Below are positions 16,850-20,300 of a DNA stretch of 64,000 nt, one piece after another. The number at the start of each line of letters is the position of its first letter. The first letter of the stretch is position 1. The notes beneath the pieces were generated by a model, which saw only the letters and a list, made by a program, of their open reading frames with translations, was not told the origin of the DNA and did not search any database. Source of the DNA: Iphione sp. A-MEVVRFRX5 (Eukaryota). The stretch spans positions 49,910,001 to 49,974,000 of the forward strand of contig OZ320319.1 in NCBI GenBank assembly GCA_976226885.1, written 5' to 3'. The position numbers were made by a program, and so were the translations under genes.

Positions 16850-17302
16850 TCATATACCTAATTCCTTATCTCGAAGCTCCTCCCAAAGTTGTCCCAGTCG
16901 ATTTTCTCCTCGAAATTCTTTCTGAGAAGATATCTTGGCTACATTTTCATTCATCCCCACCCCCCAGAATCTATCAAAATCTGCAAATACCAAGCGGCTA
17001 GTGTTACTTAGCTTTTCCCTCACTTCATGGTGACGTTGCATCTTCAATGTGATCACCTCCCACATAACTTCTTCTTTACCAGATCTCTTCCACCGTTCAC
17101 TAACATCGATGAAGTCTGCATATGCTTTCATCTCTGTATGATTGGTTGTCAGACGTATTGCACGAGCTTCTTGTTCTGCTTTGTGAAACTTTGCCATCTT
17201 ATACAGGAATAGATGCTCAGCAGAAATAAAGCCCTCTCCCATATCACAAAAGAAGCGAGGACTCAGTATATCACGGGGGTTGCTGAAGACACAGAAATCC
17301 AT
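16850..17302 (-). CDS. NADAR (YbiA-like) domain, in frame with the pPolB C-terminus
   Basis: FISAEHLF...AKFH, W...VMWEVITLKM, DRFWGVG and GENRLGQLWEELR match the NADAR pattern. Confidence 0.8.
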   Translation of the reverse strand: MDFCVFSNPRDILSPRFFCDMGEGFISAEHLFLYKMAKFHKAEQEARAIRLTTNHTEMKAYADFIDVSERWKRSGKEEVMWEVITLKMQRHHEVREKLSNTSRLVFADFDRFWGVGMNENVAKISSQKEFRGENRLGQLWEELRDKELGI

Positions 17303-20300
17303 TTCATTACCCCAAGGAGAGAGAGTGATCTTGAGAGGGGTTGTATGAATTCCGTCCTCTGCAACAATTCGCTTTGCATAGAAATAGGAAAATCCAGTCC
17401 TTTCCTGTTGATAAGTGAACACTGTGTTATCCAAGGCTCGAAATCCCATATTGGTTCCTGAGGGGGACTTTTGTGTGGTCAACACAGAGTGATAAATTTC
17501 CATGGGATCTGATAGCCTTGACTTAGAAACCCCTTTACAGCTCAACTTATATCAATTTGGAGATGTCTGCAAGATGTAAGTCTTGCTACAAAGAGCAATT
17601 ATCACCTCGCCTCTAGCCTCTTCCTTCATGATTCCCGGGACTCTTCGATCAAAGGTGTTATGATGCTGGCAACATTCCCGCATAAACCAACGGGGTTGTA
17701 CATCATCGTTGCAGTTACCATAGACTTCACTCCTGTAGTCCTGTCTCTTCTCTTCCGTCATTGCCTCTTCAAGTGATGTAGTCGATAGTGCCAGATATGC
17801 ACTGTCTGTGTCCATCGTGATATATTCATAATGGTCACGAGATATCAATTGATCAATGCAGTCATAATAAAAAGCCAACATCGTTAACTTGGCATACTGC
17901 AGAATTGTGAAACCTAAGTATATTGGGAGGTCTAGTACAATGCGTGGTTTGGCAGAATCAACTTCAAAAAATCCCCCATATTCAACCATCTTTCTGAAAG
18001 AGGGAGCACTCACAGCAAGTGATGCCTTACATTTGTCAGAGAAATATTTGATTGCTGTTTGCTTTTCTTTTTGCATAATAACTCCTCCATAGGCAGAATT
18101 TCCGATGAGTTTCATTGTATCTGCAATGACTGGCATGTCAGGATTTGCATCACCCTGACGTCTGGCAGCAGTAACCTGCTCTTCGAAGTGTTTGAAACAT
18201 TCTTTACGTGAGAATTCCAATACTTGATATATACGAGTAACCTTCAATCCATGCTCAACGTACCATTTCAATAATGGTGTTGCAATAAGAGTCTTTTTAG
18301 CACTCATTGCACCAACCAAGAGCTCTCTTGGATGATCTGATAAATGATTATCAGACACGTGTCTTCGCATGTGAGGGCCAATGTCGCTCATCTGAACAGA
18401 CGCCTTACCGAAAAGAGGTGACATCTCTTGGAAGAATTCCCATGGAGGAAGTTTTTGCTCTTTACCTTCATCCCAATCTTCAGGGACACATATGTCCACT
18501 TCAACTGAGCCAAATAGTGTTTCATCAACCACTGCTTGGATAATTTCCTCTTCGGACAAATGACCATAATGGGATTGAGAAAATGGGGGTAGAATTATTT
18601 CCCAAGACAACTGTTGCAGATCTGCGTTGATCTCAAGCATCTTTCTGAAGCGACATTCAGGCATTGTGACTACCTCATAACCCATCCACTCTAATGAAGC
18701 CTTTCTTTGTTCTGTTCGAGTCTCCAGTTTCTTCCGTTTACCCTCATCCATACTTCCTTTCATGCATTGATGACCGTGAAAATAACAACCATCGAATTCA
18801 AATATGGTACCTCTGGAGGGGGTGTTTTCAGAAGTGATTGTTTCAGAGCTTAAGAAACCATCAACACGGAATGAACCGATACGTACTTCACCTCTGTAAT
18901 GGTTCTTAGCATGTAGTATAGATCGATTCCTAATTCGAGACTCCCACTCTAACCAGACAAACATGATCTCGTACGATGAGAATTTCTCAACCATGAACCC
19001 CTTCTCACTTCTTCGACGTGTGAAATTTCCTGCAGGCATTGGTTTTGCTATACATGATAGATACAGACTGTTAGCGTCCAAACCCAGGACTGCTTTACAG
19101 ACAGAATCTCCCTGTCTGATGGTGGTCTTATTCTTCTCATGGTAGCGTGTGAAGACCACAGCCGGACCTCCTACCAAATTTTTCTTGTAGGTTTGGTAAA
19201 TGTCTTCTTGAGCACCATTAAACACAGGGAAAACTGTGTGGTTTTCTGAGGCAGATTTAAAAAGCATCCGCCTAGCCATATCAGGGGCAGAAACTGATAT
19301 CTTGAACAAATCTAAATCTCTGTCAAAATAGAACTTCTGTAATCTCTGGACCCCTTCCACAAAAGCAAAAACATCCAAATTGTTATAATAGCGAAGGAAA
19401 TCTGCTAGAGTTCTCATATTTTCCCTACGCCACACTTCTTGTAAACCTTCATACTCGCTGACAGTGATATTACTCCCTCTCAATGACGAGTAAAAAGCTT
19501 CATAAGGTGGCAATTGTGTCTCAGTTAACTTTTCTGGACAGTTCAAATACTCGTAGCAGAAGAAACTTTTTTGCTGACTGACTCCATAAGCTTTCAAAAA
19601 GCAGGCATAAGATACCCCAGGTGACAAATACTGACAAATGTCAAGGAATTTAAATTTGTCATTAGCAATGGTCACATATGTATTTTCACGTTTGATCACA
19701 AAAGAACCTGATTGGTCTACTCTCATCGCCTTAAGTAATTCACGCTTCAAGAGATTGAGATCATATCGAGCAGAATTAAAACCTATGACTGGTAAGGAGT
19801 TCATGTACCTTTTGAACTTGTCCTCCATCCGCTGTACCATCTTTTTGTACTTCACTGCTGGGTGAGAACGCATTTCCCAATCAACGTCGGTTGCAACCTC
19901 TACTTGGATGTCATCTTCGGCACCTAAATAGATGTCCGAATCGGAATCTTCTTGTTCAACTTCTCTTGATCTGACATCTGATGCAAAGTCCTCCTCGTCT
20001 GAGTGTTGATCAGATTGAACGCGCTGCCTCAAATCATTCACCGTTTTGTCACAGTTTTGCTTCAATTTGTTCAATTTTTCAATAACTTGTCCCCATTTAG
20101 AAATGGCACGATGAGCTGCCTCTTCCTGAATTTGTTCCAGGTATTGAATCATAGATTGTACGAGCAAGTGCATGTTTTCATTGATGAAACATGTGGGACT
20201 CTCGAAACCTGGAACATTGCTGCACACAGACACCGAGATTGTCTCGTGTCGATGAATCCAAGTGACCCGAGGAGAATCTCTTTCCCCGTCCAAACCCCTC

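Follow-up and report, generated by a model that had tools for sequence, protein, structure and literature searches.

A NADAR-fold domain, predicted to be catalytically dead, at the C-terminus of a Maverick/Polinton DNA polymerase in Iphione sp.

The window analysed here, a stretch of 64,000 nucleotides from Iphione sp. A-MEVVRFRX5 (GCA_976226885.1, contig OZ320319.1, positions 49,910,001 to 49,974,000, forward strand), contains a degenerating Maverick/Polinton element whose protein-primed DNA polymerase of family B (pPolB) continues in frame into a domain of the NADAR fold, known from enzymes that remove ADP-ribose from DNA. This combination is real and widespread, and is an apparently undescribed variant among polinton polymerases. 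The NADAR domain of this lineage is under purifying selection, and from its sequence it is predicted to be catalytically dead. In the reading that we favour, and to which we give a probability of roughly 0.55, a former counter-defence NADAR has become a structural subdomain without catalysis, docked on the thumb/palm end of the polymerase, which likely now depends on it.

The fused frame in the window copy

The junction lies within a single translated frame of 233 amino acids (aa) on the minus strand (17551-16853, with the stop codon at 16850-16852), composed of the C-terminal (thumb) piece of pPolB with a short linker (17306..17551, minus; linker Trp codon at 17312-17314) and the NADAR-fold domain (16850..17305, minus), which was assigned by Pfam, profile alignment and structure match. 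The polymerase end, YFYAKRIVAEDGIHTTPLKI, occupies aa 56-75 of this frame and is followed by TLSPW (76-80) with no stop between them. The linker between the pPolB end and the domain reads TLSPWGNE in this copy, and the landmarks MDFCVFSN (84-91), AEHLF (111-115), DRFWGVG (193-199) and GENRLGQLWEELR (215-227) come after TLSPW. The Pfam family PF08719 (NADAR) matches aa 103-229 with 69.7 bits against a cut-off of 35.1, and an AlphaFold model of the domain alone, built with 21 aligned copies, reaches a predicted local distance difference test score (pLDDT) of 89-98 across residues 91-180. In structure comparison, with Foldseek also run, this model matched the NADAR 8BAU with a Z score of 14.4 and a root-mean-square deviation of 2.4 over 147 residues; the other solved NADARs scored Z 12.9 (YbiA) and Z 6.7 (8BAT), and the best non-NADAR row Z 4.0. 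By Pfam, model and structure match, the fused domain has the fold of the NADAR superfamily, a YbiA-like helical core with two small sheets.

The first-pass annotation had proposed an in-frame fusion of pPolB to a NADAR-like domain, and both the fusion and the identity of the domain are confirmed by these results and by the open frames of sister copies, in which no stop follows the PLKI of the polymerase end. For the window copy itself the proposal holds at the junction, which is open, but not beyond it, as an in-frame TGA at 17552-17554 separates the 233-aa frame from the polymerase core. A 328-bp insert bearing a GIY-YIG fragment (20319-20646) interrupts pPolB a second time, and because of these two breaks the complete fusion is visible only in sister copies.

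Distribution of the fusion

The source genome (1.18 Gb in 89 contigs) was searched with a query that included the NADAR domain, and 150 of 2,485 candidates were scored. The match region was stop-free in 140 of the 150, and in 102 both parts shared one open frame of 1,580 aa or more, at 48-96% identity to the window copy, which shows that the fusion is not due to chance. Since this query contained the domain, the search was repeated with the polymerase end alone, and 18 of 20 fresh loci were fused; of the other two, one has an interruption within the domain and one went unparsed. Outside the source genome, the best 120 of 242 relatives (query with the domain; six cluster mates were left out of the 120-row sets) comprised 22 with a full-type tail, 20 with a shorter one, one with DUF4326 and 77 with none; the relatives from named hosts (bivalves, sea cucumber, amphioxus), which point to an animal host, all lack the tail. 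Among the best 150 representatives of a library clustered at 50% identity, the polymerase end is directly followed by a NADAR-like domain in 104, of which 73 are complete, and the same fusion was found at 2 of 19 metagenome loci. Of the 79 cluster members extending to the end of the polymerase, 78 retain the full tail. The open junction of the earlier annotation is thus conserved both in other copies and in other datasets, and precomputed Pfam tables already mark PF08719 on such polymerase proteins. The 150-aa domain alone, used as a query among proteins of similar length, gave no match, and the NADAR domain profile gave two among longer proteins. Three distant NADAR loci were found in viral contigs; L101, the one checked, is not a polymerase fusion. 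Among RNA runs none was listed as containing the fusion, a result that does not bear on its expression.

The product is probably one uncut polymerase-NADAR chain, as only four of the 37 open copies have a Met in the linker and only three an adenain-like site near the junction, while all of them keep polymerase and NADAR 18-19 aa apart. The first-pass annotation had also considered a separate small protein starting at ATG 17302. This start codon does precede the domain in this subfamily, and a stop lies upstream in the window copy, but the rarity of the linker Met, together with the open fused frames of the source genome and the same junction across the library, largely refutes a separate protein as well as chance read-through, and we regard both as hardly credible.

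Active-site residues

Positions were mapped to 8BAU by profile alignment, with residue roles taken from PMC11543638. L049, L060 and L061 were left out of the residue counts, the first two because of a stop or truncation in the domain. In the 233-aa frame, E112 corresponds to E43 of 8BAU, M119 to K50, D146 to R79, W154 to W89, K159 to R93, F189 to E125, D193 to D130 and W196 to W133, and the Y84 position falls in an alignment gap. In the E. coli C7 NADAR the equivalents of E125 and K50, D171 and K95, are essential (PMC11543638). Neither is found in the 38 copies counted in the source genome: the E125 position holds Phe in 20 and Tyr in 18 (Glu in 0/38), and the K50 position Met in 34 and Leu in four (Lys in 0/38). 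R79 is likewise absent from all 38, with Asp there in 31, and the ribose-binding Glu (E43/E88) is present in 32. This lineage therefore lacks both the last-strand acid of active NADARs (E125; Asp or His elsewhere) and the phosphate-binding Lys (K50/K95). The replacement of the Lys after EHxF and of the Glu before DxxWG is as the first-pass annotation had described it, and its caveat that the domain may be inactive or only a binder has become the main result, because the catalytic equivalents are missing in this lineage; the active, replication-coupled eraser that it had suggested is not supported here.

As a control, the coiled-coil ORF1-like NADARs of the same genome keep E43 in 29/29, K50 in 29/29 and E125 in 24/29. 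The 21 external domain rows keep E125 in no case, K50 in eight and E43 in five. In a third subfamily of the source genome, judged by eye from 18 fused rows among 20 loci, E43, K50 and W89 are all gone. The 20 proteins of the short class are missing about 35-40 pocket-region residues but are homologous, with hhalign giving 97.9% to the full class and 96.2% to canonical NADARs. All three of E43, K50 and E125 are kept in just two of 54 full-length fused representatives, P0263 and P0264. Both are true pPolB-NADAR fusions, present as fragments (350 and 261 aa, from contigs of 1.3 and 1.8 kb), and activity is predicted for them; five others have E and K only, and 47 are without that pair. P0263 and P0264 led us to abandon the generalisation that all fused domains are dead.

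Selection and history

Ratios of nonsynonymous to synonymous substitution (dN/dS) were calculated pairwise with NG86, and 5 of 24 pairs were used, the other 19 being either near-identical or saturated in one region or both. In the five pairs, diverged and unsaturated in both regions, dN/dS was 0.074-0.135 for the domain against 0.049-0.102 for the polymerase.

A FastTree analysis of 136 polymerase cores grouped 16 rows from the source genome with 19 full-type and 20 short-type rows (support 0.945), with no tail-less row among them. The NADAR trees, from which L102 and L103 were left out, place all 66 fused NADARs in one group (Shimodaira-Hasegawa-like approximate likelihood ratio test, 91), with the intact pair outside a group of 62 (83). 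ORF1-like and giant-virus-type NADARs fall on the same side as the fused ones with a branch support of 97, in a tree with few outgroups and long branches. The tree fits a single capture of an active enzyme followed by decay, an order of events that we infer from the branching, and the pocket residues decay differently from branch to branch, as in the third subfamily and the short class.

Junction and structural model

The three positions that by far best tell fused polymerases from tail-less ones are the linker Trp1012, Ala911 and Leu926 (differences of 0.89-0.93, against 0.63 for the next). The linker Trp occurs in 38 of 42 fused and 2 of 77 tail-less rows. Ala911 is the Ala of EEARG (17615..17617, minus); 37 of the 42 fused polymerases have it but only one of the 77 without a tail, 74 of which have Phe, Tyr or Trp in its place. 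A model of an open sister copy from the exonuclease to the end has a pLDDT of 89 and a predicted template modelling score (pTM) of 0.87, and the segment after DxxWG, which scores 58-70 in the model of the domain alone, rises to 87-92 in it. The helix after WGxG has a fixed length and conserved hydrophobic positions.

The sequence of events proposed here would have begun when an active NADAR was captured, once and long ago, at the C-terminus of pPolB, probably to defend against ADP-ribosylation by the host, with catalysis later lost in almost all descendants. The junction would have become rigid, its seat being formed by the linker Trp and the change from Phe/Tyr to Ala in the polymerase sheet, and the domain may have been retained as a stabiliser of the polymerase or a shaper of the exit side for the duplex or terminal protein, either for an added benefit such as processivity or through mere entrenchment. 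The counter-defence role put forward in the first-pass annotation would survive for the ancestor and for P0263 and P0264, with E43, K50 and E125 kept, but not for this lineage.

Several observations weigh against such a structural role. pPolB in general does not need the tail, as 77 of the 120 relatives are without one. Docking is predicted from pTM, pLDDT and co-change, and the two models were built from different copies and at different alignment depths (21 and 54 rows). Ancestry is a confounder for both Ala911 and the linker Trp, and neither is found throughout the wider set of 54, which has Ala in 32, an aromatic residue in 13 and the linker Trp in 31; a strict requirement of Ala911 for the fusion was dropped in view of this set. 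The polymerases P0035/P0086 and P0069 stand outside the main fused group of 55 rows, the monophyly of fused polymerases is weak (55) in an IQ-TREE analysis of 66 full and short rows, in which the full class receives 91 and the short class 99, and slower evolution can make the intact rows branch early as an artefact. The domain has a mean net charge of -2.4, against +2.7 in ORF1-like NADARs, and this acidity also disfavours a role as a DNA clamp. Finally, W89, D130 and W133 are present in 38/38 copies of the source genome and R/K93 in 37/38, and these residues, like the frequent E43, contact ADP-ribose in 8BAU. As a separate observation on P0069, its C-terminus holds two NADAR-like repeats in tandem that are themselves clipped C-terminally.

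Alternative explanations

These retained contacts bring forward a non-catalytic reader or decoy of ADP-ribose, on template DNA, the terminal protein or host proteins, that would aid bypass, shielding or sensing. E43, W89, R/K93, D130 and W133 are kept, four of them binding the pyrophosphate in 8BAU (PMC11543638). Across all classes, no motifs are better kept than D-x-x-W-x-x-G and G-x-N-x-L-G, and in P0060 the corresponding place is taken by DUF4326, another domain associated with ADP-ribose (70.6 bits). The remainder of the pocket speaks otherwise, with K50 replaced by Met or Leu, R79 mostly by Asp and Y84 in a gap; W89 and E43 are lost in the third subfamily, the short class is without part of the pocket, and P0249 lacks the DxxW motif. 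We consider a reader or decoy unlikely, and a further suggestion, that the kept DxxW half binds adenine (e.g., in terminal-protein-dAMP), was dropped, as this half binds pyrophosphate in 8BAU. The reader or decoy also forms part of a wider scenario that we consider rather unlikely, in which animal Mavericks captured an eraser against a host defence that ADP-ribosylates mobile-element DNA; the eraser would still be active in the early-branching P0263/P0264 and the ORF1-like proteins, would serve as reader or decoy in this lineage, and would have a parallel in an independent capture of DUF4326. If true, it would imply an unrecognised immunity in invertebrates based on ADP-ribosylation of nucleic acids, a eukaryotic counterpart of DarTG and AdfN.

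That the domain is still an ADP-ribosylhydrolase with a rearranged active site, reversing a host mark at the replication fork as the first-pass annotation supposed, appears very doubtful for this lineage. The full catalytic set of P0263/P0264 and the E43 of most source-genome copies are in its favour, as are the Glu, Asp or His found at the last-strand position across NADAR subfamilies (PMC11125620) and the partial activity in vivo of the E36A and K43A mutants of phage AdfN (PMC11825919); the many ORF1-like NADARs with intact sites in the same genome point the same way and suggest ADP-ribose pressure on mobile elements. The last-strand position is however Phe or Tyr in every copy, and no other acidic residue is conserved instead, an Asp two places on being found in only 12 of 21 families; K50 is absent from every copy, and the Lys next to it is variable (K, R, E or S). 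A dead domain may instead tether the polymerase to an outside partner (the packaging ATPase encoded downstream, the terminal protein or a factor of the host, for instance), for which the net acidic surface, the conserved-hydrophobic helix of fixed length after WGxG and the purifying selection can be cited; the polymerase-side co-changes point rather to an internal seat, and we judge a tether improbable.

Relation to known systems

The polinton pPolB has been described with the architecture TP-vOTU-EXO-PALM (Krupovic et al., 2024, PMC11161782), and the polymerase studied here shares with it the long N-terminal extension, the exonuclease and palm motifs, the phi29-like fold and the neighbouring integrase, ATPase and protease. 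The C-terminal NADAR-fold domain is additional here, and the term ADP appears nowhere in the available text of that paper, nor in the available text of PMC11131425 and PMC8502044; the polymerase fusions known in the polinton group are helicases (PMC11161782, PMC12721341). With 8BAU (a Phytophthora NADAR), the DarT1 antitoxin and YbiA (PMC11543638, PMC11125620), the domain shares the fold, E43, W89, R/K93, D130, W133 and GxNxLG, but K50, R79, Y84 and E125 are lost and the domain is fused to a DNA polymerase. The phage anti-DarTG1 NADAR AdfN/gp30.3 is also a virus-borne NADAR associated with genome replication and offers a model for the ancestral fusion, although it is stand-alone, belongs to a bacterial virus, is catalytic and needs an E and a K, the latter lost in the Maverick domain (PMC11825919).

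The replicase polyproteins of RNA viruses likewise combine NADAR and viral polymerase in one chain, and these polyprotein NADARs have been proposed to counter host ADP-ribosylation, whereas those of DNA viruses are typically stand-alone, NADARs being known from nucleocytoplasmic large DNA viruses too (Iyer et al., 2022, PMC9503650); the fused cases in that paper are RNA-virus polyproteins, and neither Polinton nor adintovirus is named in its available text. NADAR uptake by eukaryotic mobile elements is also seen in the Gypsy Pol of Ectocarpus and the ORF1 of an oyster Tx1 long interspersed nuclear element (LINE), which are retroelements and not DNA polymerases (PMC12477816); the ORF1-like NADARs of the source genome keep catalytic residues. 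We found no published description of a pPolB-NADAR fusion, in a search that did not extend to Repbase, subscription journals and supplements, where the domain may be mentioned.

With at least 104 clusters at 50% identity, the fusion adds an apparently undescribed architecture to polinton polymerases. At one fixed position its members grade from an intact enzyme through a pseudo-enzyme to a truncated remnant. The fusion thereby offers a clear case for studying how a conflict enzyme may turn into a structural part of a replicase. The role of NADAR in animals has been called unclear (PMC11125620), and P0263/P0264 together with the ORF1-like NADARs could serve as baits for animal NADAR substrates and for ADP-ribosylation of mobile-element nucleic acids.

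The Maverick/Polinton element and its genes

Maverick/Polinton elements have inverted repeats at their ends, which begin with AGT, and are flanked by target-site duplications of 6 bp. Both features are found in the degenerating copy of about 25 kb at 908..25925, recognised from its termini AGTAGT...ACTACT, its duplications and a sister copy: the inverted repeat arms lie at 903-949 and 25884-25930, and the duplication TATATT at 902..907 on the left and 25926..25931 on the right. The pPolB region is 96-97% identical in DNA to a sister copy. By blastn against such a copy the insert at 20319..20646 (plus), which we take to be Penelope-like, appears as a gap; its GIY-YIG match scores 22 bits, slightly under the cut-off of 22.6.

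The exonuclease and palm core of pPolB (17552..20318, minus) ends at the in-frame TGA, and it forms one frame with the N-terminal piece (20647..22059, minus) in sister copies. This N-terminal piece has C2H2 zinc fingers (zf-C2H2 match), followed by a region that is probably terminal protein and vOTU by comparison with PMC11161782, and its Cys motif LCxFRC is kept in 36 of 37 open copies. The enzyme is a protein-primed family B polymerase by its motifs and phi29-like fold, as the ExoI-III and polymerase A-C motifs are kept in 36-37 of 37 open copies and a model of a sister copy matches phi29 polymerase with an E-value of 4.8e-13, Foldseek ranks 1-9 all being phi29 polymerase. PF03175 was not matched by the window-copy polymerase, as is also the case for the divergent 'Beta' class of PMC8502044. 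A Vsr-like nuclease insert with VDGF and EFDGCYFHG motifs lies within the palm at about residues 480-570 of the pPolB model (window ~18600-18950), and some relatives have weak Vsr matches.

Further genes on the minus strand include a packaging ATPase at 16146..16835 (Walker A/B in the translation; Pox_A32 E 0.003, below cut-off), a retroviral-type integrase with a chromodomain at 14049..15299 (rve E 9e-7, 29.5 bits against a cut-off of 32.6; Chromo E 4.6e-8) and an adenain/Ulp1-type cysteine protease at 11421..11918 (Peptidase_C48 E 7e-4 and C5 E 2e-3, below cut-offs), the ATPase and the protease being recognised by weak sub-cut-off Pfam matches and visible catalytic motifs. A frame at 11893..13254 (minus), split by an in-frame stop, is presumably the major capsid protein, judging by its position and motifs; this frame and the one at 13659-14042, the candidates for the double jelly-roll major and the minor capsid proteins of such elements, had no Pfam match. 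Two frames resemble membrane proteins, 8346-9641 (minus) and 10069-11072 (plus, split over two frames), with a signal-like start, a Cys-rich cap, a Ser/Thr-rich stalk and a hydrophobic segment, and near the right end a 290-aa frame (23934-24806, minus) contains an LPLPxxLKxxL stretch, which we take to be reminiscent of a SOCS box; none of the three had a Pfam match.

Other NADAR proteins and transferases

Pfam was run on 34 window frames, and no cognate DNA ADP-ribosyltransferase was found among them; in the genome no pierisin- or DarT-like transferase was found (PF22596 and PF14487 without a match), in a search whose controls were equally silent. The genome holds 4,416 NADAR candidates, of which 150 were scored. 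They include a large family of coiled-coil proteins of about 500-700 aa that end in a catalytically intact NADAR (L072-L100), which resemble the oyster Tx1 ORF1-NADAR and which we presume, from their motifs, to be LINE ORF1-like. These frames are often followed by one of 210-260 aa with an SDxRG motif, presumably SGNH esterase-like and without a Pfam match. An intron-free canonical NADAR at L071:1360-2346 (minus; 174 bits) has all catalytic residues and is a possible host gene; in the tree it lies near phage and multi-NADAR proteins. P0002 is a giant-virus-type mRNA capping enzyme with a C-terminal canonical NADAR. In P0060, a single case nested among tail-less polymerases, DUF4326, a domain tied to ADP-ribose processing (PMC9503650), occupies aa 1489-1569 at the pPolB C-terminus.

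Other elements in the window

Beyond the Maverick, an unusually long (22-kb) long terminal repeat (LTR) retroelement occupies about 35600-59000 on the minus strand, its LTRs being 98% identical and 22,228 bp apart, with internal arrays of 24-25 bp; it carries gag, protease, reverse transcriptase, RNase H, integrase, an env-like Baculo_F frame (38721-40115) and extra frames. A broken Gypsy-like remnant (RVT_1) lies at 27173-31258 (plus), and a broken piggyBac-like transposase (DDE_Tnp_1_7) at 32112-34194 (plus).

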